From: Blasia pusilla
Lineage: Eukaryota
NCBI GenBank assembly: GCA_050084515.1
Contig: CM114271.1
Location: 37,076,001 to 37,140,000, forward strand
Length of the DNA: 64,000 bases
Reading direction: 5' to 3'
A program made the position numbers and the translations under genes. Each line of letters begins with the position of its first letter. Within the stretch, counting starts at the first letter, position 1. This document shows positions 23,111 through 64,000 of this stretch, piece after piece. The notes below the pieces were generated by a model. The model saw only the letters and a program-made list of their open reading frames with translations. It did no database searches and was not told the DNA's origin.

Positions 23111-23587
23111 ATGAATCCTCTCGTCAATTTGGCGAGTCCAGCAGCTCTCTCTGCCAAGGCTGATGACGATAATTTCTGCTCATCGAAGCTGGCGGACAGT
23201 CCGTCTTTCGCATCCGTCGGCAGTGGGCACTTCCAATCATTCCGCAGTGAGAACTCCTACACTTATGCGGACGTCGAAACAGAGCTTCTTCACCGCCCAA
23301 GAAGAGCGGACAACTACTACGGCATCCGACAAGAGTATTTACGTAGCTACACATTCACCAGGGAGCAGCCGAAACCTGAGAAGTTCAAGGATCGCGTGAA
23401 AAGACTCAAGGCCGTAGCCTGGGCGATCCTTTGCTGCAAGTACAAACCCGCTCAAGCTAGGGTATTGAGGGAGAAATTGTCGAGCAAAAGCGCCCGCTTC
23501 TTCCGCGAGAGCTCGGAGTATGTCTCCTCTTCATGCAGATTTAGCGTGCCCAGCTGTCTATGCCTGTCGAGTCTTGAAGTGGCTTAG
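23111..23587 (+). CDS. Plant-specific uncharacterised protein, 158 aa, with RQxYLRSYTF motif
   Basis: Intronless ORF MNPLVNLASP...GIRQEYLRSYTFTREQPKPEKFKDRVKRLKAVAW...; I recognise RQ-Y/F-LRSY-F followed by a basic helix as a motif of small land-plant proteins of unknown function; upstream TATA and CT-rich leader support a real gene. Confidence 0.75.
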   Translation: MNPLVNLASPAALSAKADDDNFCSSKLADSPSFASVGSGHFQSFRSENSYTYADVETELLHRPRRADNYYGIRQEYLRSYTFTREQPKPEKFKDRVKRLKAVAWAILCCKYKPAQARVLREKLSSKSARFFRESSEYVSSSCRFSVPSCLCLSSLEVA

Positions 23588-42217: not shown

Positions 42218-44718
42218 GCGGAAAATACTTGCTCGAGGACTATAACGTCATTATCTTATAGAATAGATATGTCCTCCATAATGATCATAGAATTATTAAT
42301 AGGTTTTCCATCTTTAGGTACATATATATCCTCCTTAATAAAAATGTTATGTTATATTGGGAATATCCGTAATCCCCTCATGAGTCACGGGCCTACAAAC
42401 ATATCATAAAAATTTCATTGGAATATGCATAAAATAAGCTCATTGTGGATGGTTTCAAGGAGCCTTAGTTGTTTAGCGACCTCTCATCCGGCCACTCGCT
42501 CTCTAGGAGTTGGGACTCTATGTATGTTGCGCTTTTCTTGAGGACCATGAACATTCTTATAGAACTCACACCATGAACTGGTGTGAGTTCTTTAAGAATG
42601 TTCCCCGCGGGCCACATAGCACAAACTTGCCTTGGAACCTGGCTACAATCCGACGTTTTCTGGCCTTTACCACAACACCAGTTCATGGAATCAGACCGTG
42701 CTGCAAGAGTGATTGTTACATCCGGGGTCGAAGAAGTGGCACGCTCTAGGGGAATTTGGCGGTCACTTCAAGGAAGATACGTCAGCTCAGAAAGAGCTTA
42801 CTAACACTCCGAACTGCCACCATCGCTAACATAGCCAGCCAGCGTCTGTATCCACCGGAAAGCCTTCCATATCTACGATGTGGAAGAGAGCTTCGAATGC
42901 GCTCGCCTTCAGACGATGTTGTGTGCAGATCAGGATACATGAGGGGGAGACATGCAGTGATCAGATTCGTGGAGCCCAAAGTTACGTGATCAGGATTTGG
43001 GATCCATGAATTTGATCACTGCATGTCTGCACACTCTCGCAGAGTGCACAGACTGATACGAAAGAGAGACCTGAATCTAACCCTACTATTCTGATCACCA
43101 CTATCGCTGAAAGGCCCGCCCGTTGAATTTAGACTGTCCAATGGTCGAGTAACCTGTGCGTGTATGAGTTAGATGCACCGATCAGCCTTCATGGCCCGAG
43201 ACCTGTTTCCAATCTCCAGTGAATTAACCGCTACATGAATCGGGTTGGAACTGTGATATCGACAACCATAGTCATGATCACATCGACCTCTGCATTTACA
43301 GCCCTTGAAATTAGGGACGATTAGACGTGTGGGTGCGACAACCAAAAGAATGGCGCATCATTCCAGTTTACGATCACCGAACCTGCGCAGAGACGTCCAC
43401 TTCCAATCAATCAGCCATGATTCGATCTGAACCATGAATAACATATGACAAGTTCCAAACAAGGAGGAAAATGGTTCGATGCAAGATGATTCATAAGATT
43501 TTCATAGCGTTGGTTTAATTGGTCACCCGTCTAAAACTTCATAGTGATCGACGAATCGACACACCTTAAATGCTCACTCCTGGAAACGAGATTGAGCACC
43601 CCAGGAGTGCTCAATCTCGTATCCACGTATGGCCACCTGATGCACAATATTAGACAAATAGTTCAATCGAACCAAGAGCTTTCAGACCGGAAGTTTAATA
43701 CAGGTATGATCCCTTGATTACTAACACGTTTTATGCCCACGGATGAACTCGTCGCCCGTCCTCTATTGGAGATCACGTTCGTCTGCTCAAATTCACATCT
43801 CAAGGATGAACCCGTCATTCTTCCGCTCCAAAGTTGTATCACACTGCCTGAAACGCGTAGGGATTCCATGGAAAGCAAGCTGTACTTGGAGCGGACCGGA
43901 TGAGCTATACATGTAGGTGGTCAACTCGGTAAATGAGCGTCAACAGATCAATAATTGGAAATTTTCTCGGCTCAGATTGTCAGCAAATAGCAATGTGATA
44001 TTCCAGGTTGTGCCCTCACCAAAGCGAAAGCATCATAATGAGCTCATGAATGGTGCGAGGCTCCTCAAAGTGGTGAAGGAAGAATTAGTCAGCGACGCTC
44101 TCTTGGCATTATCAACCAACGCTTGCCAGCTGAGTGGTAATCCCTGAAGGAGCTCTGTAAGCGCAGCTCCCGATTCTGGAACAGGGTCTGACGACCAACA
44201 AATTGCACGACTGTCGGCGGATTGTGTAGACAAGATCTCTACGGGGAATAACCCTAGTTGATTATTGAACCATTACATGCTGTAAAACCATGTACATGAC
44301 ATCGAAAAGCTGTGTAATCCAAATTGCGTTGTCGAGCTTTGAGTTTTAATTGGGCCAGATTCACAATCACTCACGGGCACCGAGCATAAATTCAGCGCCG
44401 GCAACTGCATGTCCTCCACTTCGTTCATTGTCTTATAGGCGCACAATCGCCTGTAACTTCTAACGCAGAAAACTTTCAAGCTGCAAAATTGTATGTACAA
44501 GCACTGCCAGTGGAAATCCTCACCTAATCCGTCCACATCCATTTCAGACGATCTTGGGAAATAGATGATTCAACGAGCCATCCCTCAATCTAGGTCTAGC
44601 TTGCACAGAACCTCAACGCAAAGATCGAAGGGCAAATGCTCTGTAGTTCATCGAGTTAAATCGACCACTACAGCGAGATCAGAACTCTGACATGTAGTTG
44701 ATTGAGTTTGTCTCCTGC

Positions 44719-46335
44719 CTAGTATCCTAAAACCGATGATGGCAAAGATTCAAGATAGCCGATTGCTGATGCGTTGACCTTCCTGGCAAAGAGGTAGCAG
44801 GGAACCTTTCGTTTCTGATTATACATGCAGACCTGGGAAGCGGTTCGTGTCTTGGAAAACTGTGCTTCAAATGAAGTATCATGGTATGCGCCATCAACCT
44901 GGACTGACCTCTCTTGAATGTCATGGAACCACGCCTGTGTCAATTGATCCGAATTCAGCGCATGTGGTGATGTCCAATGAGGTTTGCTCCAATTCACGTA
45001 CATAATGGGCCAGGTGGATATACCCATCGGATCAACCAACCCTGCATTCACCATGGAAGAACGAAAGCGCGTTGAGACGATATTCGATTCGCGCACCTAA
45101 GCCACACAGATTTAAACTGTAATGGTGACAAACCCCGCTTCTATTCATGCTGGAGAAGATGCAGATGCATGAAGGAAGCTGAGTGCTGAGAAACAAGCGT
45201 AACGACATGGTAGTGCTTTAATATCCTTGAGTAGGCACAAAACTGTTCCATGCCACCATCAATCCAGCAGCAAGATTCGATTACCTTTTTCTTTCAGAGA
45301 TTGGAGACTATTTACTCCTCTAGATGACACAGTTTCAAAGGTGTGTGACAGGAGGGAGCGGAACATGCACCCAGTCAGTCAAATTCCATCCACCTTCATC
45401 GTTACTTCATCAAGAAAATGTACCTGGCTGCGTTGTTTCTTACCTAGCAGAGTCTGGATGTATTGTTCATCCGAGGCGCACCACAAAAAACAGTTTGCCT
45501 TGAACTTCTGGTACAGTATCGAATCCTCCAAAACGACGACGGCGTGACGCCGTTGCATAGCCATCCAGAGCTCTCCCTTCCTCAAGCTCTTCTTTGGAAA
45601 TTCCGGCATCGTTTCCCACTTCACGTAGTTTGTATGAGGGCGGAAAGACTCCACAAAAGACTGTTGAGAGTCCATCAGGAAATGATACGTGTATGGAAAC
45701 GAGCGAAGAGGAATGGTTGCCTCGCAGGCGTAGACAAACCAAGAATTGGAGGCGCCATGAAAAGGATCCAGGATGGAGTACGCCAGCAATCTGCGCATGG
45801 CATCCACAAGGTTGATGGAGTAGCGCTCGACAACGGCGCTCGGGATTTCGTGATTGTAAAAGAAGGATTCGGGTGGATAATGGTATCCCGGCGTAGCGTG
45901 CACGTAGATTGAGTACTGGCCTTTATGACCTTGAAAGAATCTGCGCCACAGAGGTTCGTGAGGCATGTGATCGCGGGTGATGAATAGAAAAGCTACCTTC
46001 GGCGTTGGAGTTGCAAGTCCAAGTTGATACAGTTCGTGCGCATGACCCGTGCGAGCCGCGCACTCGAGAACAGCGGATTCGTTCCACACCTTGAAGTCAA
46101 TCTGACAGCGCTCCGAGATGCTTCGTAGGAGGGTCGTTTCGTGAGGTCTCCACTGAAAGGCGGGGAGGGCTAAACGAGATGCTAGCGTTGAAAAAGAATT
46201 CGTGACCGAATCCATGCCTCCACTCAAGCTGTCGTTGAAGGTGGCAAGGTATGCTGAACAGAAGAGAACCAGTATCACAACGCCTGTCAGGATTAGCCAT
46301 GGGTTGTTCTTTACTCCGCTACCGTTAGGACTCAT
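44719..46335 (-). CDS. Core-2/I-branching beta-1,6-GlcNAc transferase-like (GT14-like/DUF266) type II membrane glycosyltransferase, 404 aa
   Basis: Exons 46335-45444 and 45041-44719 with a phase-1 GT-AG intron, 1215 nt in total; N-terminal TM helix, KVAFLFIT, LWRRFF, YSIYVH, SFVESF, RKGELW, DEQYIQTLL, YVNWS and CYLFARK. Confidence 0.92.
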
Positions 46336-48365
46336 GATTGCCTGATCAACAGATTGGCCCGGATTTCATCACCGCCCGCTGAACCTGAACTTTCAGAGTA
46401 CCTTGTACGCACGCCTCGATAAGGATCTCACGGCCGAAAAATCGTCTATCCTCTGCAAGAAGCGACGAGGAAGTGGCGATTTAGTGTTCATGAAATCTTC
46501 AGTTCTAGCTACCTCGAATTATAGCTTTCTGGACGGCTCAATAAAGACTCGCCACTGGATTGTAAAGAAACGTAGAGAGACAACAATTTGATCGAAACAA
46601 CTACAACGAAGATGATCAAAGGACCAATAAGCACAGAGAGAGAGAGAGAGAAACTCTACTCATTAAGTAGTGCATGTATTGATTAAGTAATGCCTGTCGT
46701 AGCTTTAGGACCATAGACCCCGCGCCTTGTTTCGACGGTGCACGGAGAGAGACATAATTGCAGATTTGCTTATGTGAAGCAGACAGAGAAAATCGTGGCA
46801 GCAACAGGTAAAATACGAGATCTAGCTACCTGGCTCTTCTCGATCTGCGGGTTTCCATTTCCTCTAGTTCTGACCTCTTTGTGAGTCAGGATCGGTGATG
46901 TACGTCATCCAACTCTTGCTCGTGACACAGCAACCTCCCTGAAGGAAGACTTGCGTCTGCTGTGAGAGGACCGTCTCGTGCTGGTCCCCTATGCAGGCCG
47001 GTATTCAGACTCGGATGTATTTATTTTTTTAGCCGGGAAATCTATCTCCTGTGGAATAACAAAGCGTTTTCCTCCACAGACATCCCCCTGTTATGACGGG
47101 CTCTGAATCGTGCAGGGTGACACAGAGATTCGCTCCACAGGCTTGAGGCTGTATCTTGCACACCATGGCGCCCTTCACACTATTGGGAGGAGCACCCGAC
47201 AGACAGTCCACATAAAGTTCTTAGGATACATCTGCGTGGTAACGAGTTTTCCTTCCATTTTCTAATGAAAGGAGGCGAGCCAATCAGTTTCTTGGATACT
47301 AAGCTCCTTCGCGTATTCCACCACGATCACCATACATTCTCCCGGGGATGTGGTAGATTTTCTGCGCCGCGGATGATTGTTGGAAGGTTGACCAGACCAA
47401 CCCGCAGCCCCGCGATCAGAGTATGACGGTATGACCAGTTCAGCGCTACTCATCTTACACCTACTACCAAGCTCCCTCGATTCATCTACGGACCGTGCCA
47501 TTGTTCTTTCTCCCTTCCTTCGCGCCACGGCCCGCTTTGCAATCGCCTCGGACATAGATGTTACCGTAATCCTGCGCCTCAAGCTTCGCTTCGCTCATGG
47601 GGTCAACGGTGAGGTGCCAACCTTCTTCCTTCGCGTCCACTCTGTTTTCTTTTCTACGGCTGCCGGAGATCTCGCTCTCGGAGGACCCTCCTGAGTCCTG
47701 TCACATGGCTTTACAGTGCACCTTCTCGTTATTTCAGGCTGGACGATCTCCCACCCTCCCGGAATCGTCCGCACCCACTCCAGATCGCGCGGCTGCGCTT
47801 GTCCCGTACTGCACGAACGGCACACAGTGATGCAAACGTGAGGGCGGATCGACGGACTTGCGCTTCGACGATCGTAACATGCGCGCGGTGACCACATCCA
47901 TCGCGGCCAATATAAATATATATATATACACTTTTATCGCTCGGATGATGAAGGCTTTCATGGGACTCTATGGTAAGTTGCCAATCGTGTTTGATGGAGT
48001 ACTGGCAAATAGGACAAGTGATTGGAGGAGTGTCACTAGAAAACCGTGTCTTCTCGTGATGTAAAGTGGTTTAGGACAATCTTCTAACTTCGCTAGTCCC
48101 ATGTCTAAGTGTGGCGTGGCATGGTTTACTCCAAAGGTCATTAAGTCCCGCTAGAGGGTTATCTCTTCCTTCGGCGAGTTGAGATTTGCCTCAAGGTGCT
48201 CCATGTATTGCAAAGCACAAATTCATGGAGTGAAAGGAGTAGTTTAATGCCTCGTGCCTCTTCATCCTCTCGTTAGTTAATCCCGAGGTCAAGATCCTGA
48301 CTTCTCAAGATCTATTTTGGGTAACAGATTAAAAATTTTATTAATATTTTACCTTTCACGGAGGG

Positions 48366-48430: not shown

Positions 48431-48822
48431 AGGTGGCATGTTTTGCATGAGCCTTTTGCACGAGTCTAACCGTGGTGCCTCTAACCCGAGGATGAATAGG
48501 CGCGAGGGTTTAATGAGGGGTGTATTATACGGGAAGGTAGTCATAATCATGGGTCAAACAAGAAAAGTCTTTGGTATGATCCATCAAAGTTAAAACTTAT
48601 ACTAGCTAGTGGTGAGATTAGGAAGGGCGTCAAAATCAACCGTGGGACTAACTCTAGGAGATGCGCGCATGTGTCTTGTGAATGGTCTTAGGTGAGAAAA
48701 CAATGTAGCTACTCGCGGGGACAAAGGCAAGGCAAGCAAGGTTTGAAACCTTGGAGCCAAGCGCCAAGTCAAGGACAAGAAGCAAGGAACACGTGATCTA
48801 TCAATATGGGCGAGAGACCATG

Positions 48823-49286
48823 TGTCGTGCGCGTACTTCCTTGAACGTGGATCTTATGTGTCGCAGAAGCTTGCATTCAACAGGTCAACCTCTTCTTACT
48901 GATCTACACCCAAACATATTCACATTAGCCACGGCTTTGGTCAACCAGCCTTGAACCTTTTGAGTCTTGGTCCAAGGCCATCCTTCAAGCTCAACTAATC
49001 TAGACGAGGTCATATACCGACATAATCTCTCACTCCCCAACACAGGCAAGTCCTTCAAGACTTGGTACAGACTTCATTGATAGTCTACCAAACTAAAATG
49101 ACGCTAGCGCATCTGGAGATCCCAACTACCAAACAGACCTCAAACAAGTCTTTAACCGAGACTCACTATTTGAGTCACGGGTCAAGGTCCAAAGTTGGTA
49201 TCCATAGTTGGCCCACTTGGACTTGGCTTTATTTTGAGCTACGGCCCCAGCTCGCCCTGCGGGCATTACACGGGTCTGATCGCGGG
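48823..49286 (-). mobile_element. LTR segment (minus orientation) related to the 61275-62299 LTR, interrupted at 49287
   Basis: TGTCGTGCGCGTACTTCCTTGAACG... aligns over roughly 250-300 bp with TGTCGTGCGCCTACTCTCCTTGAACG at 61275, with shared blocks CTTCAAGCTCAAC, CCAACAC.GGCAAGTC and AAGACTTGG.ACAGACTT. Confidence 0.75.
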
Positions 49287-51604
49287 TGTCACGACTGTTA
49301 GGATAGATCGGTGGGATCAAGCAGAGCGTCTGCACGAGTAGTGGAGGACAGACCTATGAGGTCGAGGATGACCTGTTGAGGCCCGGGGAAACGTGAGAGA
49401 GCAGGTTTCCCCTTTATTTCGGCTCATTTGGAGCCAAATAGAGAAACTTACTATTTCGGGTAAGTTTCCATATTAGAGATACTTTACTTTCCACTTTGGG
49501 AAGTGGCCCTTGACCCGCTACAGCAGGTCAAGAGCCAAGGAGGTGACCTGCAAGAATAGGTTATCGTTTAGAGGGCTTGGGAGAGGGAAGGGAGTATACC
49601 TCCAAGAGAGAGAGCTTGAGAGCTCATTCTCTCTTTGTTGAACCTCTTGGCATAAGGCGGCGGAGCTATGGTCCCTTGCCTTGTGAGTGTAACCCAAGCC
49701 TCTCATTAGGAGAGTGGGTTTGGTTTGACATGAGAGAGAGTGCACACCTTTGAGAGCTATGGTGTGAGATGGTGTAGAGAGAGATTGGATCTTACTTTAC
49801 AAAGAGAGAATGAATAAGTGAGAGAGCTTCATGGGGGCAGCTCATTGGGCACTCGCTGGTTTTGCAGGTTGGGGATCATATGCCCCGTTCAGCGGTTCAT
49901 GGGAGTGCTCACCGGAGCAAGAGCCGCTTACTTGTGATGTTTTCTTTGCCGATTTTTGTGTGGAAGAGTGGCGCGGGGAAGCACCGCCCAATTTTTGATA
50001 GGGTTTGAGTGTGGGGGCAGGTTTCCCCATGCTGGTTCTCTCGGGAGCACCATGTAGCTTGCTGATTTGTGTTCTCATATGTTTTACATTTTCATTGGGA
50101 GAAATCAGCGCAGAAGCGCTGCCGAATTATGTGTAGGAGAAAGAGACATTTGGCTTAATGACAGTCCCCGTAAATTTTTACTACAATGTTCGAGTCCAAA
50201 TATTTTTTGATGCTCTTGTAGATCGTGAAGTTGTGCACGTTGTGCAACAAACAATGCACAATTTGGAGTAGTGAGCAAAAAGTTATGATCAATCTTGCAA
50301 AATTGCCATTGCTAGGCGATTTTTAGGGTTAAATTGTTCAAACCCTAAGCCGCCGCCGCCGCCGGCCGTCGCCGTCATAGTCACCATCAACGGTCCGACG
50401 TTGACCATCAACCGTCATCGGTCCACCGTCAACCGTCACCGTCACCGATCGGCCGTCACCATCGACGGTCAACCATCACCGTCAACAGTCCACCGTCCGT
50501 TGTCCACCCTTTGGTTGCCATTGCCACCATTACAAAGTGGAGGGTCTTCCATGACGTTCGTTGATTCTCTAACTTGCGTTGCCACCACGTACTTTGTTTT
50601 GGCCACCACTGTCATCGCAGTTTTGTCATCAACCAATGATGGCAGATGATCTTCGGTTATGGTGTTTGAGTTTTGATTTTATTCTTCTATGTTGTGATTG
50701 GTAGCCGCTCGATGACGATCGAGTACCGTGCCGTGACGCCCGTAGCCGCAATGTGCCGCCGATTGCTGCGCCGTGCCGCTCGTGGCCGCACCGCACCGTC
50801 TCGATCGCGGAACCGCTCCTTCACTAAGGAGCAGAGAGTGAGAAATTTCTGATTGAGGAGGGTATGCCGCCGAGTGTCGTGCTGTTTGTAGCCGTTCCGT
50901 GCGGCCAGTGCCACACCGGACCGCTCGACCTGCACCGCACATCGAGGAGGTTGAGCAGCGTCAGTACAAGAGGCATACGACTTGCTAATTCGAGGAGTTG
51001 TCTTCACGACCGAGTGGGGGTCGAGATTTGCAATTGCTGAGGAGCGACATCGACATGTGTTCAGGTTACCCATTCTGGTCCTTTATCCCGCACGTGTGGG
51101 GGATTCTCGGATTTGGGTAGTTTATTTGGGGATATTTGTTGTGTGGATGCTGAGAGCATCATTCATGTATGTGGTTCAGGGGACATAAATCTGTGTGGGA
51201 TGTCCGGAGTTGAGGGTAGGTTGTCGATGAGATGATAGTCTGGTCGATTTTCCGCACCACGCCGCGTGTTGCCGCATGTTACACGTCTCGGGGAGGGAGA
51301 GTGTAGATTTAGTGCCGCATGTTTGGGATGAGTGATTGAGTGATTACTCACGAGGTTGAGAGTGATTAGGTGAGAGGGGCACGAGGGTCATCACGGTGTC
51401 CGTTTGGGACTTTGAGAGGCGAGGTGGTGAACCCGAGAGTAGCTCTAGAGGTTTGACGCGGAGTGGCGCGAGGTTCCGAGGGTCTCCATGTAAGGGACCA
51501 CCTCGACCTCCTTTTGTGTCATCGTCAGAAAAGGGGAGGGTGTAGAGGAGTTTGTGAGCACATTGCTACACATTGTGAGTGGTCCTACCAGTTGGGCGTA
51601 CGAG

Positions 51605-53083
51605 ATGGACAACCGGGGTAGAGGACCGCGTAGGTTTTCTGGTGCATTATGCACGATTGAGTTGCACGATTTCATAGTAGAGTTTAGGAGTTGGTGTGAC
51701 TCCCAGGGGGCCAGAAACTCTAGAGAGTTTAACCCGTTTACAGCATGGAATGGTATGTTCCAGCATTTAGAGGGGATGCCCATGGACGATTACCATGAGT
51801 TCTCCCACATATATGGCCAGGAGATTGAGGCATGGTGACTCTACTATGACCCACACTTTGTGTCATGGATGGAGCCATTCCTAGATGAGGAGGAGGAGGA
51901 GTTAGGAGAGGCTAGTTCCTCTTCCACTAGTGATGTTTTAGGAGGGGTCACTCACACTAGAGCAGTTGAACCATCTAGTCGGGTTCATCCCAGGTTCAAC
52001 CCCGTGGTTGAGTTCTTCGCTAAGTTGAGGGCCAGCTACTAAGGGGTACCGATGGAGAAGTTGCGGAGCATCCACGACTTCCTGAGGCGCCCGGATGAGA
52101 GTTTACATGAGGCTTACACTCGCTTGCGTCGGTTGATCAACATCACTCAAGGGGTGACGGAGGCTCAGGCTATCCACTCATGATACGCGATGCTGGACCG
52201 GACCCTGCAGACACGGGTGCGGGAGGGGGTGCTTCTTATGAACACCTCCCCTATATTGAGAGATTTTTTTAGGACCGCCAAGAACATTGAGCCCAACATG
52301 GCGGAGGAGAGCGTAGCCACCATGGGTTCTGGGCGAGAGCAGTCACGATTGGTTGCACCACCTGTGCAGCAACGTGGACTTCGAGATAGGTCGACTGTGG
52401 CACCACGAGCTCAGGGAGGATACCAGGTGGCTGTGCCACAGAGACCTACGCCTTCATATGCGGCTCAGCAGCAGACGCCTACTATTACTTGTTGGTCATG
52501 TGGTGGAGCCCATCATCAGCACGATTGCACTTGTCAGGGTCATGGACGTGTGCCTCAGCATGGAGGAGGAGATGGTGCTGCACTAGGAGGTTATCAATGT
52601 GACTATTGTCAGAGGTATGGTCATACACGCGCCAGGTGTTTCAGTCTACATCATGAGTTACGTACGGACCGAGGGCCATAGAGGGCACCAGAGCGAGTAG
52701 CCGGTCGGGGTGGGCCTAGAGATCGTGCACCAGGTGGTCCCGTTGGGGGACGAGGAGCTAAAGTTGCCCGACAGGGTGGTGGAGCTGCCCGTGGAGGAGG
52801 TAGAGTACCACCACCTAGACGCGCCAAGGGAGACGACGGACGTGAGGCTGGGATGGCTGCTCACATACAACAGCTACAGGAGCAGATTGTCGTTATGGCA
52901 TTGAACTTACTCGATGCCGGATTTGTGGCATCGACATCATATGATGCAGCCAGAGATATGGAGGATCCTGGTTGGATGTGCCGGGTTGCCCAGATGGAGG
53001 CCGCCGCAGTTGTGATGCGTGGAGCAGCCGCAGAGTTGGATCCACAGCGAGGGGAAGCCAGAAAACATACTAGGCTTCCTTAG
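51605..53083 (+). pseudogene. Gag-like region with two zinc knuckles
   Basis: One frame from the ATG at 51605 with internal stops; LRRPDESLHEAYTRLRRL, CWSCGGAHHQHDC, CDYCQRYGHTRARC, then an Arg/Gly-rich stretch. Confidence 0.75.
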
Positions 53084-53559
53084 TCTTTCACGTTGTCTAA
53101 AGCGATGAGGACGCCATCGATGGGTCCTCATCAAAGTTCGTGGAAAGTTGGTGATGTTGTTGGTGTGCACGCACGGAGGGCGATGGGAGAAGCGAGTGCG
53201 ACGAATCCTATTGTTGATGCTCATGAGTGCATGTGTCGAGCACGTTGTTGGGGACGGCCATTGTTGTGTACTGCACTCCTTTATTTTCTGCTTCCGATGT
53301 TATGACGTTGGGGGGTACGCCCGCTGAGGCTTTCAGCTGGCCGCTTCATTATGTGAGCGCGGAGTTCGAGTTCCTACATCACGTTCAGAGGTGATTGCAT
53401 AGGAGGTGATGGACTTGCCCTTGGAGCGGATGCTTGGGCCATCCATGTCAGATTCATGGCAAGCTACGGCTTCCTGGATGGCGGAGATGCCCGCTAGACC
53501 CGCGATAGAGCATGCGATGGCTTCTCTTGGTGTTGTGTTGCTGGATAACCAAGGAGAGG

Positions 53560-53950
53560 TCTTCCAATTGGTGAGTCCCGGAGATAGAGCTTTTAGTCCG
53601 CAGCGCGTCTTGTTGGATTCACGAGCGCAACCCTTGATGTTGGGGAAAGCGTCATTGAGAGGATACGATGAATGACGCTTTCCATTTCGGATACAAAAGC
53701 CAATGTGGAGCGTTGTCCATTTCGGATACAAACATCCTTGGATGGAGCCAGTACCACACAATATATCACCCGACATGAGGTCGTGGTGAGGATTCTCCCG
53801 GGACATCCTACAGATGAGTCCGTGGTGCGAGCCAAGGCGATAGTGATTGATATAGAGTCCTACGACGTCTTGGTTGGTGGAGCAGTGTTATACCCGATGG
53901 GGTTTTCCGTGGATTACTGGGAGGATTCAGCGTCCTACAGACCAGGATGA
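53560..53950 (+). pseudogene. Retropepsin-like aspartic protease
   Basis: RVLLDSRAQPLMLG (degenerate DSG active site) and a downstream YDVLVGG motif, with one frameshift between them. Confidence 0.7.
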
Positions 53951-54334
53951 CAGTCAGGTGATGGGCGCCTTAGCTCATTACCTATTCGATTCATATGTGC
54001 AGTGATCGAGCGACGGCCAGGAGAGGTGGCGACCTTAGCAGCATTTAGCAGTGCCATCACTTGGCCTAGTGATTTGATTGAGGGACATGTCCATGCAAAG
54101 GATACTCCCGTTCCTGACATTTCTATGGAGAGGATTATTATGGTAGCCGCATCATTCCGTGGAGGATAGGTGCCATTGTGGGGCTCCACTGAGGAGCTTC
54201 GACGATTGGCAGATGAGCACATGCAGACCGCGTGGAGCGAGGCATTTGCACCGGAGCGTGAACCCGAGGTAGCAGGGAGTGCTACGATGACACCCTTGGA
54301 TACCACACCCATTGTGTGGTGTATCACGGAGGAG

Positions 54335-55280
54335 GGTATTCGAGTGTTAGATCTCTTTGGAGGGATTAGCACCGGGTTAGCTGTTGTTTTGCAGGCATGA
54401 GTGCGAGTGCAGCAGTACCTATATGTGGAGAGTGATGATGTTGCGAGGCGCGTCTCACTACGACATATGGCACAGTTACGCCTATGTTTTCGAGAATTAT
54501 TGTCTACGTCTACGGTACAGGAGTACCAGAGTTCCCTACCAAGGGATATTTCATTGCTCGGGGCGCAGGACTTAGAGCGGGTAGGGACCATTGATTTGGT
54601 CATTGTCGGTTGGCCATGACAGGGCCCATCGAGTGTTGGACGAGGCAGTGGGTTGGCTGACACTCGGTCCATGTTGTTTTGGGAGATGTTGAGGGTCTTA
54701 CGGTAGTTGCAGGAGCATCAGTCTCGTTCTCCAGCCTACATTCTAAAGAATGTGCCAATCTTAGCAGACTTCAGGTCACGGGTGGTGACAAGTGCTTATC
54801 AGGTGCGTGCCCGGATCGGCCCAACAATATTCTTGGATGCGTCAAGTGTAGGTTCTAGAGCCCATCGCCCGCGTCTATGGTGGACCAAATTGGTGCCCAA
54901 TGCGGTGTTACGCAGGGCGTATGCGAGAGTGGAGCGCCCCTCCCATTTGTTAGTGGATTCCATTCTGGATCCAGGTCGTCGATTACAGGCAGTGAGGCAC
55001 GATGATCGACCACCGTTGACTGTGGTCAACAGGGTAGGCAAGTCGCGGGCAACCTTGCCCACGTTTGTGAGTTTTCCCGCTTCCTATGCATATAAGGAGG
55101 CCGGTCCTGGCTTGGTTTGGAATGACCAAGTTCAGCGGTTGGTGGAGCCCGACGTCGATGAGAGAGAGCAAGCGATGGGATTTCCCACAGGAGTGACGGC
55201 AATACCGTCAGTGTCAGAGGCATCACGACGCCATGTCTTGGGTCAAGAGATGGACCTGAACTGGTTGACATGGATCCTCA
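54335..55280 (+). pseudogene. C5 cytosine DNA methyltransferase domain, DNMT3-like, inside the retroelement polyprotein
   Basis: Motif I IRVLDLFGGISTGL, II YLYVE, III RDI, IV IDLVIVGWP*QG (catalytic Cys codon now TGA at 54617), VI YILKNV, VIII RAHRPRLWWTKL, IX EREQAMGFP, X RRHVLGQEMDL; all in one frame and in the DNMT3 motif order. Confidence 0.9.
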
Positions 55281-55639
55281 GCTTGGGAGTGGCTGAGCAG
55301 CGCCGTATGAGATCGGGACAAATCACAACGGTTGCGTTGGTGAGCCCCATGCCTACCGAGACGGTGGAGGCAGTGGCTGGGGGTGAGACCCGAGGAAATC
55401 TACACACTATGGGAGATCGGGAGAGACACCCTTGGACTTCTTGGGATGTTTTGCATGTATGCTTGGAGATGATAGCCACAGCATCGAGCGTGGTTCCGGG
55501 CACTGCACGTGGAGGAGATTAGAGTTTGCAGTTGGCTACAGGAGAGCGGCTGAGTAATGTTGTTCGAGACGGGATTGCACCATGGCAACCACCGATACCC
55601 GCGTCGGAGAGTCCTACCGTAGTCACGATGGAGACTTGG

Positions 55640-57065
55640 GAGCCAGATATGGGCCCTAAGTTGACAGGAGGAGAGCGGCGCCGGATACATCCGTTCGTCA
55701 GGAGTTATAGGAGCTGCTTTGCGTTTGGCATGGAGGATTTGGGTACGCTCAAAGGACCGGGGATCCGCATTGAGTTGTCGAATGATACGCCGATCTTCCG
55801 ACGACCCTACAGGTACAGTGATATGGAGAGGGCTCTGATTCAGAGTAGGAGCCACGACTTGGTCGGAGCTGGACTAGTGGAGATGTCGCATGGGGAGTAT
55901 GCATCTGCCATTGTCATGCCCGCCAAGAAGGATGTGCATGGCAACTGGACGGATAGGCAGATGTGTGGGGATTACCGACCTATCAATCAGTAGACGAAGT
56001 TCGATAAGTATGCCATGCCCACCCCTGAGGAGATATTTGATACAATTGGTCACGCAAAGGTCTTCAGTTCATTGGATTTGCGAGCCGGATATCATCAGCT
56101 ACCTATTAGATTGGAGGACAAGAAAAAGACAACATTTTGGGGCATCGATCCTCACGGGAAGGATTATTTGTACCAGTGGCGGTTCTTACCATTTCGGTTA
56201 AAGAACGCCCCGGCTGAGTTTCACAGGGTCATAGATAGGATCTTGGCTGGTTTGGATTTTGCTAGGTGTTATATTGATGACATCATAGTCTTTAGCGCCA
56301 CGGTTGAGGAGCATGAGCGACATCTAGAGGAGGTGTTTCGACAATTGCAATTACATGGGTTGAAGCTACATCCAGGCAAGTGCAAGTTCTTCTACAACCA
56401 AATTGAGTACTTGGGTCATACGATATATCCAAGGGGCCTTGGTGTTCAGCAGACGAAGGTAGAGGCTATCCCACGCATTCCACGCCCTACAGATGTGAGC
56501 CGTGTTTTCGCATTCATGGGATTGGCGAACTTCTATCAGTGGTACATCAAGGGATTTAATTTGATTGCGAAGCCGCTAACCTTGCTGACCAAGATGGATC
56601 ACGAGTGGCACTGGGGGCATGAGCATGAGCAAGCATTTCAGTTGCTCAAGGACAAGTTGACGTCTGCGCCCATCTTGAGGAGACCAATCAGGGGGCATCC
56701 TTTCCACTTGCACACAGATTGGAGCATGTTGGGGCTTGGAGCGGTGCTCACCCAGCATGATGATGAGGGTAGAGAGTTTGTGGTGGCTTATGCTAGCCTC
56801 TCGAACGACGGTGCAGAGGCAAAGTACAACTCGTTTGAGGATGAGTGATTGGCTGCAGTGTGGGCTGTCGCGCATTTCAAGTGTTACTTATTCGAAAATC
56901 CCTTTACCATCATCACTGATTATCAACCACTGAAGTGGCTGATGGAGTCCAACAAGATTACATGGAAGTTTGCGAGATGGGCTCTGTTGTTGCAAGAGTA
57001 TATTTTCACGTGGTACATAGATCTGGGACGCTCAACCAAGATGCAGATGGGTTGAGTCGTAACCC
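55640..57065 (+). pseudogene. Ty3/gypsy reverse transcriptase and RNase H
   Basis: PIFRRPYRYS, MCGDYRPIN, FSSLDLRAGYHQL, LPFRLKNAPAEF, CYIDDII, LHPGKC, LHTDWSMLGLGAVL, VVAYAS, IITDYQPLKWL and RWALLLQEY. Confidence 0.95.
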
Positions 57066-57438
57066 ATGCCCGAGTCAGTGAGATGCGACTGGAGCTCGAT
57101 GGCATGGAGAGAGTGATGAGGAGTCAGTGCCAGGATGGCACGCGTCAGCCTATTTAGGCATGTTGGCTATGGAGAGCCAGAGTGTGGAGACTTCGATGGC
57201 GAGGTCTAGTGGAGAGTCCTTGGATCCCGAGGCCAATGCGGAGACAACAGGTGGCCGAGATATTCATGCTGATGGAGTAGTCTTGGAGTACCTTCGTATT
57301 GGCAGCGTTGCGAGCACCGTGGATGTTAGAGAGCGGGATCGGATCCTACAGTGGGCCAGAAGGTTCCGTTGGGAGGGGACACATGTTTTGAGGGTTTGGG
57401 AGAATGGTAGAGTACGCGTAGTGCCGCATCCTCCGTAG

Positions 57439-57516
57439 AGAGCACGACTACTGCAGCATGGTCACGACGAGTTAGGTCACTTTGGGGTGAAGCAGACGTA
57501 CAGCTTGCTCCTAGGC
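57439..57516 (+). pseudogene. Integrase HHCC domain, N-terminal half (outer element)
   Basis: LLQHGHDELGHFGVKQTYSLLLG; continues at 62301 with MHTDVQQFVAMCMMC. Confidence 0.85.
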
Positions 57517-60500
57517 AATCTGTGCGCACGCCACCAACCATCCAGGAATAGTCAGGAAGTCGTGTAGGCCGTCGCAGACTCTCTCGTCGGCACAAACCTC
57601 CTCAACTTGCTAAACCGATCAACTATCACAAGTATAGCGTTGTATCCCTCAGATTCTGGAAGACTCGTAATGAAATCCATGCTAATGCTTTGCAAGGGTT
57701 CCTCCGGGATTGGCAAAGGATGAAGTAAACCTTGTTTCTTCGCATAAGACACGCAGTGATTAAGCTTAAGGAGTCACGATGTTTTCACATATTGAGCAAC
57801 ATCTTCCTTCATGTTGGGCTAGAAGAACCTCTTAGACAAAACAGCAAGAGTGGATTTCTCTCCTTTGTGTCCCGCCAAAGGTCCATCATGACATTCCACA
57901 AACACCTTGGTCCGTAGCTTGCCTTGGCCTACATAGATCCTGCTCTGCTTAAACCTTAGCAAGCCATGTCTCAAACTCAGATTGGCCACCTTCTCGCCCG
58001 CTTTAACTTCCCAAGGTACTCCTCGCTTGCTCATCCTTCATGTATCCTTCACTTAATCCTTCTTTCCAGGTCTGTTTGATTAGGGAACATTGCTCTCAAC
58101 ACTTGTGTCGTCGATGGCATGTGTTCATCCCTGCGACTTAACGCATCTGGAATGACATTGTCTTTCCCCGGCTTGTGGATTAGCTCCACATTCATCAACG
58201 CCAAGGTATCATGCCACCGAAGTTGTTTTGGCGTCACGCGATCCTGGGTCTCAAAAGACTTGAGTGATATGTTATCGGTGAATACTCGAGTCTTGTGAAG
58301 TCCCAAATAGTGACGCCACTTCCTCAAGCAATGAACCACCGCAAACAACTCTTTCTCATGAGTAGGCCATCTCCTTTCGGTGTCGGTAAGCTTCTTGCTT
58401 TTGTATGCTACAGGTCTCCCTTTTTGCACCAACATTCCTGCAATCGCGAAATCACTAGCATCCGTGTGCACCTCGAACGGTTGTTCAAACTCCGGCAGCT
58501 TCAGAACTGGTTCCTGCGAGAGGATCTCTTTGACTCGATTGAACGCTTTATCCACTTCCTCGGTCCATGTAGTATTGGAAAACTTTGCGGTCCAATCCGT
58601 GAGAGGTTTCACTATGCCCGAAAAGTTCTTCACGTATGTCCGTAAAATCGACACTCGATGAACCTTCTCATCCCCTTCACCGTGGAAGGCGGTTCCCATT
58701 CGGCAATCGCGCTTACCTTTTCCATGTCTGGACTCACTCCATCCGCACTAACCACATGCCCCAAGAACTTGATCTTTGTCAAACCGAACTCACTCTTATC
58801 CGCATTCGCATACAGCTTGTTTGCCCTAAGTTTCTCAAACATCGTTTTCAAATGTCGAGCGTGCTGCTCTAGTGTTTTCGAATAGATGAGTATGTCATCT
58901 ATATAGATGATCACAAACTCATCCGTCTCCTTGTGAAAGATGGAGTTCATCAAAGTGGTGAACGTCGGAGGCGCATTACAAAGACCAAAAGGCATTACTA
59001 CAAACTCAAACGAACCGTATCTCGTCCTACAGGTAGTCTTCTCTACATCCGCTTCGGCAATCCGAATCTGATAATATCCTGATTTCAGGTCAATCCGGCT
59101 GAAATATTTGGCACCTGACAATCGATCAAAGAGGTCATCCATCCTTGGTAGAGGATAGTTATTCCTTACCGTCACTTTATTCAGCGCCCGATAATCAACA
59201 CAGAGTCTCAACTTCCCATCCTTCTTCTTGACAAAGAGGACGGGCGCCCCATAAGGTGACTTGCTTGTTCGGATGTAACCCCTCTCTAGGAGTTCACCCA
59301 ATTGTTTCTTCAACTCAGCAAGTTCCTCTTGATTCAACCTATATGGTGCCTTTGAAGGTGGTTGAGATCCTGGTATCACCTCAATCTTATGATCAACCGC
59401 CCTATGTGGTGGCAACTCAGTCGGAAGCTCCTTAGTCAACACATCTTCAAAATTCTTTCACAACTCTCTTGAGTGTTTCAGGGATCCCTCTTGAAGCTGA
59501 GTTCTGATCTCTACATCTCGCGCTTGCATCATCCTCTACTCGTCTCATCAAGCAAAGGAATCCTTCCTCTAACTCGGCCAAACTTGTCCTCGTGATGGCG
59601 TTCACCAACTCCGTCTTTCTAGGCACCTCACGAACCAATCTGACGTCCGTCCGTTTGCCGTTAACCAAGACGCTCAACATCAAAGGTCTCCGCCTCAGTT
59701 CCACCTCATACGCATCCAAAAACGTGTTCCCCAAGACTCCGTCGATTCCGTCCATCTCGCAAACTGTAAAATTCTCCTTCAACTCAAATACTCCGCATCT
59801 CACAACTAGCCCTAAAACCAGATCTGATGTCTGGTGGGACTTGCCTCCCGCGAATCCTACCCTAATGGGTTCATCCGCCTTGGTGGTTGGCAATCCCAAA
59901 GTTTTTACGATTCTCGGACTCAAGAATGAGTGCAAAGCACCTGTATCAACGAGCAACATCACATCGGGATAAGCGATCTTGGATCCTAGGTAAACTAAAT
60001 TGGGCGTTCTCTTGGTGACTTGTAGAGATGTATCTAGATCTCCCTCCGATAAATGCTTAGCGGCAAACGCAATCATACTCGGTTTACTAACCTTGGGCCT
60101 AACACATTCCTTAGCCATATGCCCGGGTTCGCCACAATTGTAGCAAATCACTTTGGCATGCATTGACTTCGTAAACGGCGGACCCTTTGGCTTCGCGTTG
60201 AGTACCACTCGTTTTGCCGCTGGGGCGAGAGACCCTCCGTGGTCGCGCTCACCCCATTCCAAACCCTCTTGGATGTCCCTTTGTTCTTTCAGAACTTAGA
60301 AAACTTTTTGTCTCAAAGGGTTTGGTGTTGGACTTCATCGTCCCCAATCCGCTCGGCTAGTCTCAAGAGATACGCGCGACGCCTCTCGGGATGTGAGGCA
60401 TACAAAGAGAGCCTTCTCGGCACTCGGTTTGAGCCCACTTAGGAAGATCACCTTTTAGTATGTTCATCCGTGGAAAGTGCACTCATGAGCGCACTAAACT

Positions 60501-61122
60501 CTCGCACATAAGCGCCAAGTGATCCACTGGCGCAACCTCACCACCTCCATGCCATCGCGGTACTCTGATATTCGGAGTGAATCGGTTCCCAATCAACTCC
60601 TTGAAATCTTCCCAACTCAACGTTTTCCCACAACCTAGATGTTCTTTGCGGTGAGCCGCCCACCAATGGAGAGCGTGATCCTTCGAAACGTGACGCCTGA
60701 TCACCTTGTCTTGTTCATCGCTTTTGCGCTTTGAAATAGAGTTCGAGTTCCGTTAGAAACTCACTCACTTTCCGAGAACGCCCCATTCCTGTGAATGGCG
60801 TTGGCAAATTAGTCTTACAAAGCTTCTTGCCAGAACTAGAGGCTCCATTTGACTTGAATTCCGATATCACCTTGCTCTGTTCAACCATTTGGTCCGCCAT
60901 CACCTTCATCAATCCCATCATTTGGGTATAAAAGGCCGGATCGTTTAAGTTTGGACCCGAAGGTCCCGCGGAAAGATTTTCGGTTGGAACATCCTCATGT
61001 CTGGGACTCGGCACTTCGGGAGTCGCAAATTCCACCTCCGGCTCTCGGTCCGTCATTGATTCGTCTCTTGGCTTCTTTGCTTTGACTCGCGGTTTCCTCG
61101 GTTCTTCGCCCTTGGTCGCCAT
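57507..61122 (-). pseudogene. gag-pol of the nested element
   Basis: ORF pieces 61122-60715, 60704-60483, 60262-59447, 59442-58630, 58699-58049, 58034-57819 and 57752-57552, separated by frameshifts and stops. Confidence 0.9.
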
Positions 61123-61259
61123 TTGCGAGTCGTCGCCTTTTCTCAGATCTCCTCCTCGCCTCTTGCGTTCCTCCTCGGCATCGCGGTCTTCCGGCTACCT
61201 TGAGTTCTCCCCAAACGTCCCGATCTTCAACGACCCCAAGTTCACGCTCATCAAGGAAT

Positions 61260-61272
61260 GGCTTTGATACCA
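61260..61272 (-). promoter_or_regulatory. Primer-binding site, tRNA-iMet type
   Basis: TGGTATCAAAGCC on the - strand, 2 nt after the LTR end ...GCGCACGACA. Confidence 0.85.
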
Positions 61273-61274
61273 CG

Positions 61275-62299
61275 TGTCGTGCGCCTACTCTCCTTGAACG
61301 TTAATCTTGTTTGTTGCGGAAGCGTGCGTTCAGTAGGTCACGCTCTCAACGCTGATCTGCATCCAAACACGCACTTTGGTTAGTCGGGTCTTGGATCAAT
61401 CAGCGGGATTACTTTCCAAGTTCTCGTCTCGGACTCTCTCTTCAAGCTCAACCTTCCTAGTTTCGCGGTTTCCAACACGGGCAAGTCTCGAAAGACTTGG
61501 GACAGACTTTCTGGTCGATTCAGGAACCTGAAACGGCGTTTCGCGCTAGCGGTTCCTTCGTCCGATGAACATCCAATGAGTTCCTCACCAAGACTCGCAC
61601 GAAGTGAATCTTGGGTTGGAATCCAAGTGTGGCGTACAAAGTCCACTCCCTTGGATCAGGTTTGGGTTTCGGGTTTCCGCGCCAAACTCCCGTTTCATCC
61701 CGTGCCTCTGAAATGTCGTTTGGCGCCCAAAGTGGGGTTTTGTTTCCCGAGACATCTCAGAGAAGGTACTCCCCTTACTAGTACTTCTGGGGATCTCCGG
61801 GGCCCCTACATTTAGGAAAGACACAGGCCTCTCCATTGGCCCTCAACCCGATTGCTCTCTGAATCGTTTTCGGCCAATATCTCAGCCTGTACTTATGCGT
61901 TTGCTGAGATCTTTGGTGCGTTGGAAGCGTCTTAAGATCAGCTTTCCAACGCGCTCTTACTTGTTCCAAACGCATATCGGAGCTCAACGTTATGGTCCCA
62001 AACACAGTCAGATTCTCCCAAACGCTAGTCGTGTTCCAAACTGATTCTTACCTCTTTGGCAACCACCTCCCAAGACTCAACTCATCTCAAGTCTCGGCTC
62101 GCGTTTGGTCTAGGTTTCCTGGTCGCGACCACTAACGCATGAAATGCACAACTCTGTTCTGCGTTTTGTCTCTTAGACTTTTCCAAGAGAGTCTTCCAAA
62201 CGCCTCTCCAAAGCGCAAACCTCGCAACGTGAGTTCCTTTGAGTTCTGAAGTTTCGCTTGGCGCGTATTTGGTGTTGTTTGGTTATGAGGGTCGCGACA
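61275..62299 (-). repeat. 5' LTR of the nested element (1025 bp)
   Basis: The - strand reads TGTCGCGACC...GCGCACGACA; bounded by the PBS on one side and the resumed outer integrase frame on the other. Confidence 0.88.
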
Positions 62300-63467
62300 C
62301 ATGCACACTGACGTTCAGCAGTTTGTTGCCATGTGCATGATGTGTGATCGAGTCTGAGCATCATTCAATGCTCCGACTCCACAGTTGCATCCATTATCGA
62401 TCATGGGCCTAGGGTATAGATGGAATTTGGATTTTGCAGGACCTTTGCCTTTGACGGAGCGTCACAATCGTTATGTGTTGGTGATGGTCGAGCACTTCTT
62501 GAAGTGGATCGAGTTGGTTGCATTTCCTGACAAAGCGAGTGAGGGAGTAGCTTATGCCTTCCTTGACAGAGTGTTGAGTCATTATGGCACACCGGCTGAG
62601 GTGTTGACAGACCATGGTACCGAGTTTCGCGGTGAGTTCCAGGCCTTGTGTGATCAGGCGCTGATCAATCACCGCACGACTTTGTGAGATCATCCCGAGG
62701 TGGATGGATTAGCATAGAGAGTTGTGCAGACGGTGAAGAGGGGTCTACACAAGTATGGCTTGCAGAGAGGTCAACTAGGAGATTGGGACCTCCAGTTTCC
62801 GTGGTTGGTGATGGGATACAGATTCAGCAGGCATGCATCCTTAGCATCTTTTTCATCGTACTTGCTACTTTATGGCCGAGAGCCAGATTTACCAATGGCC
62901 ATTTTTCAAGATGCTGGTGAGGTGCTGGACCGTGATGACCCAGATGTATGGATGTGAGCATGTTCTCAGAGGGCTGAGTTGTTCCGGAGAGTGATGTCAA
63001 TGGCGTTCAAGAACTTGGCGATTGCGCATCATTGGAATACGTTGAGGTATGTGACTTTTCGGAGTGGTGGTTATCGACCAACTATCTGGAGGTTTCATCA
63101 GGGAGATTATGTCTACTTGCAGCAGACGGCATCGACGATATTGGATGTGACTACACGGCGCACTATCCTGAGAGTGCGTGACGTTTTGCCATCAAATGTT
63201 CTCTTGCTGGAGGGACGCGATGGTATGGTATGGAAGGACCATGTGCGTAATTGTGCGTCATGTCACCTTCCTAACATTGATGGTACAGTAGATCCGAGCT
63301 CAGTAGTAGCTCTTGCAGGCTTCCGTTGTATGTTGTGTGGTTCTGCTCGTGGTGCGGCCACGATGCTAGTCTGTGATGGATGTTCACGAGGTTGGCATAT
63401 GGCATGTGTGACGCCACCTCTCATTAGGGTTCCTCGGGGACGATGGATGTGTTTTAGATGTACATAG
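62300..63467 (+). pseudogene. Integrase core and C-terminus with PHD finger (outer element)
   Basis: CMMC, WNLDFAGP, VLTDHGTEF, DGLA*RVVQTVK (catalytic Glu codon now TAG), RFHQGDYVYL; C4HC3 PHD at 63327-63461: CMLC...VCDGCSRGWHMAC...WMCFRC. Confidence 0.92.
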
Positions 63468-63783
63468 CGGAGATACTAGGTAGGTTTTGAGTCCGACTTT
63501 TTCTATGACATGGATGACAGGAAGGCACCTAACGATGGGGCCACATGAGCACCCGGCCTTTCTGCTCTTAGCGTCCTAGAGATGTATGTTGTGGTAGGTA
63601 GGGATAGATGGCTATCTGGAGTTAGAGGAACCTAACCACCAGTTAGGGGGACGATTGGAGATATTTTGGTACTTCTTGCCTCTGTGTATGGATGCCATGA
63701 GTTAGCATGGGATTGTGTGTGTTTATGAGTGTGTGTTCGATGACAGCAATGTATGTTGTGAAGCGATGTGTATGCGCACGACA

Positions 63784-64000
63784 TGGGCCCAATGCAGATC
63801 TGACGTAAGCCAGTGTGGGCTTAGGGCGGGCTACAAGCGGGCCGATTCTTTCCTGGCTCCCTTAATCTGAGCCCTAGGGTTTGGGAAAAATCCGAGCAAA
63901 GGACCCATTGGGCATATCCGTCCCATGGACGGTCATATCCACTTCCATGCAACCGTGGTCCAATTAAACCCCAAAGCTAACTTCTCAATCCATCACATGC
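63784..64000. repeat. GGGCC-rich repeat, possibly the continuation of the LTR interrupted at 49287
   Basis: Composition resembles 49240-49286; GGACCCATTGGGCATAT...ATGCAACC also matches the reverse complement of ~32185-32227. Confidence 0.4.

Follow-up and report, generated by a model that had tools for sequence, protein, structure and literature searches.

A decayed Ty3/Gypsy element in Blasia pusilla probably belongs to a lineage that encodes its own DNMT3-type methyltransferase and a PHD finger

Does a land-plant retrotransposon carry its own DNA methyltransferase as a regular part of the polyprotein, or has one decayed copy taken up a host fragment by chance? The question was raised by a stretch of Blasia pusilla DNA (assembly GCA_050084515.1, contig CM114271.1, positions 37,076,001 to 37,140,000 of the forward strand), whose whole length of 64,000 bases is here called the window. 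In it a first-pass annotation, made from the letters alone, had described one Gypsy-type retroelement at 51605-63467 with a cytosine-5 (C5) DNA methyltransferase (MTase) resembling DNMT3 between protease (PR) and reverse transcriptase (RT). We put at roughly 0.85 the probability that the plus-strand region 51545-63467 is an old, dead Ty3/Gypsy copy, named element A, of a lineage with its own DNMT3-type de novo MTase and a PHD finger after the integrase (INT). The proposal of a single element held for the parts of element A but not for the interval 57520-62300, which belongs to a second retroelement on the minus strand, element B (see below).

The domains of element A were ordered Gag-PR-MTase-RT-RH-INT-PHD (RH, RNase H), as judged by Pfam matches, motif coordinates and a tblastn search of the window with a near-intact relative locus, L027, as query. 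A zinc-knuckle Gag followed by PR, RT, RH and INT is the Ty3/Gypsy order. The L027 product aligned in five pieces (51545-53128, 53331-53696, 53696-57142, 56986-57519 and 62301-62591), the second and fourth of which were each in a shifted frame relative to the main one, and only about 5 residues were missing from the match across the break between 57519 and 62301. As so little is lost at the break, element A was taken to be a single element in which the frame shifts at least three times, near 53130-53330, 53696 and 57000-57140. Pfam recognized RVT_1 (E 3.5e-26) and RT_RNaseH (1.5e-29) in the main read-through frame, and rve (8.4e-11) and PHD (5.7e-10) in 62358-63470.

The plus-strand open reading frame (ORF) pieces starting at 51494, 51839, 52184, 53672, 54170, 54401, 54707, 55523, 55994 and 56849 have a common phase; read through from 51494 to 57055 they give 1854 codons with 21 stops, and 23 stops were counted over the frames aligned to L027. 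The single shared frame claimed earlier was right for the ORF pieces listed and wrong for the protease active site, which frameshifts have put in another frame and which reads LDSRA at 53613-53627 (LDSGA in a relative). Within the window, neither a second copy of element A (tblastn with L027) nor a repeat pair or long terminal repeats (LTRs) belonging to it were found; judging by the spacing in relatives, its 3' end should lie past base 64000. Near the expected 5' end, at 50348-50465, there is probably a variable tandem repeat, as DNA contigs skip 55-116 bases there in differing ways and the reading frame repeats with a short period.

What kind of enzyme was the MTase? All six C5-MTase motifs were present between protease and RT where they had first been noticed (coordinates in Table 1), and the Pfam profile PF00145 (DNA_methylase) matched the window domain with an E value of 8e-5 and 22.7 bits against a cut-off of 22, relatives scoring about 35 bits. 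An alignment of 16 domains, together with the coordinates, showed the motifs in linear order, not rearranged as in DRM. The codon of the catalytic Cys is TGA in the window (54617-54619), and an AAG (Lys) codon at 54746-54748 replaces the Glu of the ENV motif, giving KNV; additional stops were found at 54398-54400, 54704-54706 and 55520-55522. The window copy is, as the first-pass annotation had it, a dead member of the DNMT3 group of C5 MTases, with both the catalytic Cys and the motif VI Glu lost.

The closest solved proteins were DNMT3A, DNMT3B and DNMT3C both by sequence and by fold. In a phmmer search of the Protein Data Bank (PDB) with the window domain they made up the top 29 sequences (best E 8e-8), with DRM2 at 3e-4 and M.HhaI at 0.2, and the HMMER alignment to the DNMT3A chains contained the very DNMT3A strings that the first-pass annotation had quoted as resembling its motifs. 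A profile built from 12 relatives sharpened this ranking: DNMT3A 1.8e-14, tobacco NtDRM 1.4e-8, DNMT2 3e-5 and HaeIII/HhaI 5e-4, with no match to DNMT1 or to a chromomethylase (CMT) found at E up to 0.01. We then compared folds with an AlphaFold model of the intact L027 MTase domain, computed from a 57-row alignment (pLDDT 85.3); an earlier model from a 12-row alignment was set aside (pLDDT 50.5). In Foldseek, 31 of the 31 PDB matches listed for the L027 model were DNMT3A/B/C catalytic domains, the best among those listed being 6f57_D (E 6.4e-21, TM 0.84 on the target, 21% identity). By sequence and predicted fold the element MTase belongs to the DNMT3 group.

Is the domain confined to this copy? 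A word-indexed protein search with the window MTase returned 41 relatives at E up to 1e-3, among whose named sources were Calypogeia fissa (4), Sphagnum species (4) and Marchantia polymorpha (6). The best of them reached E 1e-153 at 59% identity, and at such values a chance match is excluded. A search among longer proteins added 18 relatives, 14 of them from Marchantia and several annotated with CCHC plus PF00145; one, P0053, showed the order MTase, RT, RNase H. Cluster look-ups yielded intact ORFs of 1280-1332 amino acids (aa) that recur and span Gag, protease and MTase. A scan of metagenome contigs gave 64 related loci, most of them decayed (a plus-strand ORF of at least 400 aa was present in only 4 of the 39 loci of at least 6 kb). 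In an exhaustive profile search the cluster representatives numbered 5587 at E up to 1e-3, 1368 at 1e-10 and 384 at 1e-30, and the Atlas cluster nearest to element A was eukaryotic, with Streptophyta as its commonest taxon.

The Gag-PR-MTase-RT layout is therefore that of many copies, in liverworts and mosses (Marchantia, Calypogeia, Sphagnum) and in Closterium. The MTase shares its frame with the neighbouring domains, and its position recurs in many copies from several species, which bears out an earlier suggestion that it is an integral polyprotein domain; the liverwort and moss relatives bear out another, that the system reaches into embryophytes. Some of these ORFs have entered gene catalogues: Marchantia polymorpha P0046, P0047 and others are transposon ORFs listed as genes in reference annotations, and one element ORF of this species bears the UniRef name 'DNA (cytosine-5-)-methyltransferase'.

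Sequencing reads gave the same picture of a repeated family. In a DNA run of the likely source organism 12892 contig pieces matched 50000-64000, and since 9215 of them were 95-99% alike, many similar copies exist there. Three RNA runs gave 211, 221 and 260 reads on 50000-64000, which, being almost all only 95-99% alike, come almost wholly from other copies and not from the one in the window. Over element A the first mate of the RNA reads mapped to the minus strand, and over element B to the plus strand; assuming the usual stranded libraries, both families are transcribed in sense.

We next mapped domains on 283 proteins by phmmer with pieces of L027 and P0060 (Gag, PR, MTase, RT, RH, integrase and PHD). 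Two orders were found: type A, with PR-MTase or MTase-RT adjacency as in the window (73 proteins), and type B, with RH-MTase or MTase-integrase adjacency, mostly followed by a PHD finger (98 proteins), a sister group whose full order runs RT-RH-MTase-INT-PHD; the remaining 112 were too short for their order to be assigned. Besides bryophytes, type A included the Closterium proteins P0117, P0119 and P0124, and type B the 'pol' of the green alga Scenedesmus sp. PABB004 (P0187). A FastTree phylogeny of 102 MTase domains divided the types by one branch (SH-like support 97) and grouped the window MTase with L027, P0076 and the sequences from Calypogeia, Marchantia and Sphagnum in an eight-member clade (support 100). 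In a quick IQ-TREE phylogeny of 64 RT-RH rows, with the RT of element B as root, the type-B rows were monophyletic (95) and the 6 of type A fell into two basal groups. Each tree needs a single change of order, which fits one old acquisition of the MTase and one relocation; it stops short of proof because neither tree includes host DNMT3 or other Gypsy lineages.

Has the MTase been maintained as an enzyme? Residues were counted in 197 near-complete domains, the window copy excluded. Type-B domains retained both the catalytic Cys and the motif VI E-N without exception (96 of 96 each), and type-A domains nearly so (Cys in 51 of 55, E-N in 50 of 55). Among type-A domains 11 of 55, and among type-B domains 54 of 96, had Glu-Cys (EC) in place of Pro-Cys in motif IV. 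The Glu-Cys domains include the MTases of P0095-P0243 and others. Across 26 diverse members with a mean column identity of 28%, the Cys, the Glu and one Arg of motif VIII were invariant. Ratios of nonsynonymous to synonymous substitution (dN/dS, Nei-Gojobori method), for which 26 of 65 sequences were usable, fell with divergence: 0.92 among 24 pairs of near-identical copies (dS < 0.1), the kind of value that decay following insertion should give, 0.57-0.64 across 251 pairs at dS 0.1-0.6, and then 0.20 at dS 1-2 (26 pairs) and 0.11 at dS > 2 (11 pairs), these last being rough values as dS above 1 is near saturation. Such ratios point to purifying selection on the MTase domain between lineages.

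A second feature shared by relatives is a stop at the end of the MTase. The frame of L027 is open save for two TAG codons, one of which directly follows the MTase and is itself followed by CAA CCA and by the RT in the same frame. Among 41 sequences in which the MTase and RT flanks were adjacent, 30 had both in the same frame, and the 11 others were decayed copies with insertions or deletions; 28 of the 30 had exactly one stop between them, in the context A*QP (the asterisk denoting the stop). At the 36 loci with the stop motif the stop was TAG in 29 and TAA in 7, and the next two codons were CAACCC in 34, CAACCA in 1 and CAACCT in 1. The C-termini of the intact ORF1 proteins (1248-1332 aa) fall in the same short segment. 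In intact relatives, then, the MTase closes the Gag-PR-MTase frame, and an in-frame stop parts that frame from the RT. The window has lost this stop: its codon at the family position is TGG (55583-55585), followed by CAA CCA, and its TAG at 55520-55522 is a decay stop distinct from the family position.

UAG followed by CAA resembles the leaky stop of tobamoviruses. The conserved stop and its CAA context suggest that RT may be reached by read-through. About 50 nucleotides past the stop a hairpin, CUUGGG...CCCAAG (window 55625-55665), was invariant in 9 of 9 sequences (the window and 8 loci; RNAalifold), and it overlaps the conserved codons for ETWEP..GPKL.

The other end of the polyprotein carries the PHD finger. 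The 66 residues at 63267-63467 matched, among PDB entries, the PHD of PHF12 (2.4e-15) and those of CHD4, KAT6A, DPF3, KDM5A/B (PHD1), PHF21A, AIRE and UHRF1, fingers of a kind that binds the histone H3 tail when K4 is unmethylated (H3K4me0). A PHD finger downstream of the integrase was found in 21 of the 64 metagenome loci and in 67 type-B proteins. No chromodomain was found in element A with Pfam, which keeps it out of the chromoviruses.

The ends of relatives were also unusual. In 4 of 4 loci examined (L051, L055, L034 and L063) a repeat A of about 342 bp stood at the 5' end and a B1-A2-B2 arrangement at the 3' end, with repeat B measuring 113-117 bp and repeat copies 91-96% identical. This A...B-A-B pattern occurs despite the DDE integrase that these loci encode. 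The ends have the form TG...CA, and all four loci were flanked by 4-bp target duplications (AAGG, CATA, TCTC and AATC, identified by eye). No TGG-type primer binding site was seen by eye past repeat A1 in the relatives.

How might these parts work together? The Gag-PR-MTase protein would be the main translation product, made in Gag-like amounts, to which occasional read-through of the leaky UAG would append RT-RH-INT-PHD. The protease would release the MTase inside or beside the particle, and the enzyme would methylate either the element's newly made DNA (its own complementary DNA) or the fresh insertion site with its flanks. The PHD finger would anchor the integrase on nucleosomes that lack methylation at K4 of the H3 tail, and new copies would thereby land in, and come to resemble, silent chromatin that the host tolerates. 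We hold this chain as a whole tentatively, at somewhat less than an even chance. More doubtful still is the broadest version, in which a single ancient Gypsy lineage, extending from chlorophytes to liverworts and mosses, would carry an active de novo DNMT3-type enzyme and an H3K4me0-reading PHD, methylating itself and choosing silent chromatin.

Several points weigh against these proposals. The window copy of element A is itself incapable of any function, given its stops, frameshifts and dead motifs, and beyond a family that encodes a conserved DNMT3-type domain every step of the chain above is what we infer. The trees were made by fast methods, contain only 6 type-A rows with RT and hold no host DNMT3, DRM or Klebsormidium sequence; the replacement of the motif IV Pro, the small share of sequences usable for dN/dS and the saturation at high dS count on the same side. 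The stop is not universal in its type, for the Closterium-type protein P0104 (2188 aa) spans Gag to integrase without it. Covariation support for the hairpin was absent in the 9 sequences (RNAalifold term 0.09), which leaves a read-through signal there unsupported, and the putative H3K4me0 reading by the element's PHD draws on the properties of its PDB matches.

Among other explanations, the one that survives best accepts an active enzyme and aims it at host DNA at large or at rival transposons, damping host responses or competitors, instead of at the element's own copies. An MTase lying within the abundant Gag-PR-MTase product would be made in excess over integrase, as such a role would favour, and the main text of the 2018 paper on related elements (PMC5890265) leaves their role open; we nevertheless consider this target unlikely. 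Less probable again is a pseudo-enzyme whose fold was kept for binding DNA, S-adenosylmethionine or a host factor. The frequent Glu-Cys form of motif IV would suit a non-catalytic protein, but nearly every member retains the catalytic Cys, the motif VI E-N and the motif VIII R-x-R, selection between lineages appears to be purifying, and the Klebsormidium relatives are described in the main text of PMC5890265 as keeping the key residues with Ka/Ks < 0.2. We regard it as a poor candidate. Methylation of RNA in the manner of DNMT2, on the element's genomic RNA or the primer tRNA, could appeal to the DNMT2 chains among the weaker PDB matches (3e-5), but DNMT3A/B/C were nine orders of magnitude better by sequence and filled the whole set of listed fold matches, and this highly improbable reading was rejected. 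A one-off capture, in which a single Gypsy copy took a host DNMT3 fragment that is missing from others with the same RT, accords with the single copy in the window and is practically untenable, being contradicted by the recurrence of the domain at one position in copies from Marchantia, Calypogeia, Sphagnum and Closterium and in the 64 metagenome loci, by MTase and RT trees that concur on the main split, and by the 9215 of 12892 source-organism contig pieces that are 95-99% alike; it was rejected.

The integrase region of element A is interrupted by element B, a truncated ordinary Gypsy inserted at a later date, whose interval comprises the 4781 bases between 57519 and 62301. Element B is without its 3' part and second LTR; element A nonetheless resumes almost exactly at the break. 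A direct match of 105 bp with 78% identity links 48814-48916, upstream of element A, with 61266-61369, beside the Gag of element B, and may be part of a B-like LTR. Near element A just one clear host gene was seen, a single plant-like open frame of 328 aa at 45379-46365 on the minus strand, with a Core-2/I-branching enzyme (GT14) domain (Pfam 1.3e-40). At 41549-42329 a minus-strand ORF of 232 aa, for which Pfam gave no match, runs across two pairs of short direct repeats (41952-42024 / 42164-42236 and 42084-42171 / 42242-42329, about 80% alike). The block 21400-26200 is GC-rich (0.52-0.56 against 0.31-0.37 nearby) and contains overlapping long low-complexity ORFs on both strands.

Table 1. Positions of the features of elements A and B in the window and of the end repeats in the relative locus L051
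Feature	Position	Strand	Basis or remark
Gag of element A	51545-53128	+	tblastn of L027; 5 in-frame stops
Gag zinc knuckle 1, CWSCGGAHHQHDC	52490-52528	+	motif; spacing slightly off
Gag zinc knuckle 2, CDYCQRYGHTRARC	52598-52639	+	motif
Aspartic protease	53331-53950	+	N-terminal part 53331-53696 in another frame
DNMT3-type C5 MTase domain	54170-55522	+	motifs I, IV, VI, VIII, IX, X
MTase motif DLFGGIS	54350-54370	+	
MTase motif GWP-TGA-QG	54608-54625	+	stop at 54617-54619
MTase motif ILKNVP	54740-54757	+	
MTase motif AHRPRLWW	54860-54883	+	
MTase motif EREQAMGFP	55160-55186	+	
MTase motif LGQEMD	55238-55255	+	
TGG CAA CCA, homologous in position to the relatives' stop	55583-55591	+	alignment with relatives
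RT and RNase H	55592-57142	+	Pfam RVT_1, RT_RNaseH; YIDD at 56270-56281
Linker and integrase start of element A	56986-57519	+	tblastn; shifted frame; broken off at 57519
Integrase core (rve) of element A	62301-63266	+	resumes about 5 residues past the break at 57519
PHD finger, integrase C-terminus	63267-63467	+	zinc ligands within 63327-63464; then TAG
Element B, ordinary Gypsy, no MTase	57520-62300	-	ORFs, domain matches; inserted in element A
Element B Gag	60715-61194	-	
Element B CCHC and protease	59447-60295	-	
Element B RT	58630-59457	-	
Element B RNase H	58049-58747	-	
Element B integrase start	57552-58037	-	
L051 repeats (positions in L051)	1676-2017, 10238-10350, 10350-10691, 10693-10805		A...B-A-B

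How does the element compare with known systems? According to the main text of de Mendoza et al. 2018 (Nat Commun 9:1341, PMC5890265), DNMT-carrying retrotransposons had been reported only from Symbiodinium and Klebsormidium nitens. The finding is cited as 'streptophytes' in the accessible text of a 2025 survey (PMC12344493) and of a 2026 preprint (bioRxiv 10.64898/2026.05.21.726589). KnitGypsy-Dnmt3 of Klebsormidium nitens, as described in that 2018 text, is alike in having an unrearranged DNMT3-type domain inside an LTR Gypsy polyprotein, with key residues kept under purifying selection; the same arrangement, a DNMT3-type domain inside a Gypsy polyprotein, was found here in many copies. The legend of its Fig. 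4c describes DIRS-like repeats with Gypsy-like domains, to be compared with A...B-A-B in 4 of 4 relatives of the window element, and this split-repeat oddity is an additional link between them. The hosts differ: a charophyte there, and here Closterium together with liverworts and mosses, the sister type adding a chlorophyte. In the main text of PMC5890265 the position of the domain and a stop between MTase and RT are not named and the word PHD is absent. The likeness is drawn from the description and not from Klebsormidium sequence; no such sequence was named among the relatives in our protein and profile searches, whose matches are family members only. The window element is probably a dead Gypsy-DNMT3 element in a land plant.

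Other known systems are more distant. SymbioDIRS-Dnmt3 and SymbioLINE-Dnmt of dinoflagellates are also retrotransposon-borne cytosine MTases with conserved catalytic residues but, by the same main text, have a DIRS backbone with tyrosine recombinase and a LINE backbone, and are independent acquisitions (PMC5890265). Animal DNMT3A/3B/3C and plant DRM2 share with the element MTase the DNMT3 catalytic fold and motif order, and DNMT3A in addition has a PHD-type H3-tail reader, its ADD, to set beside the putative post-integrase PHD of the element. The animal enzymes differ in being only about 21% identical and in having PWWP or ADD ahead of the catalytic domain, neither of which Pfam found in the element; DRM differs in its rearranged motifs; and only the element MTase is part of a retroelement polyprotein. 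Chromoviruses likewise fuse a chromatin-reader module to the C-terminus of a Gypsy integrase, a chromodomain in their case and a PHD finger in element A, for which a targeting role is conjectural. The EpiLTRs, or DAM-carrying LTR elements (bioRxiv 10.64898/2026.05.21.726589), also combine methyltransferase and chromatin reader in LTR retrotransposons; as far as the text of the preprint goes, they differ in that they occur in other eukaryotes and carry, with chromodomains, adenine methyltransferases and a cytosine enzyme related to DNMT4, and the preprint itself separates them from 'streptophytes (Gypsy-DNMT3)'.

We found no report of MTase-carrying retrotransposons in bryophytes in the open literature, supplements, figures, subscription journals and repeat databases lying outside the scope of the search; the supplementary trees of the 2025 survey (PMC12344493) may include such sequences. 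In open main texts we found no conserved TAG-CAA stop between MTase and RT, no post-integrase PHD and no split repeats with 4-bp duplications. Within the literature searched, the novelty lies in how broad the family is and in its two domain orders, which diverged together with the RT, as well as in a stop conserved among relatives, a PHD finger fused to the integrase, and split repeats accompanied by target duplications.

The streptophyte Gypsy-DNMT3 kind thus persists in land plants, including the genetic model Marchantia polymorpha, where the role of such an enzyme for its transposon, long open, can be tested with natural copies. With element ORFs annotated as genes, counts of host DNMTs in bryophyte genomes may be inflated. 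If the proposed activity is real, element-borne enzymes in bryophytes, from copies that are still transcribed, would contribute to de novo methylation of the host genome, and some of them would have been mistaken for host DNMT genes in annotations. The family is large, numbering 384 cluster representatives at E up to 1e-30, and in pairing MTase with PHD it illustrates well how a mobile element can put together a set of chromatin tools.

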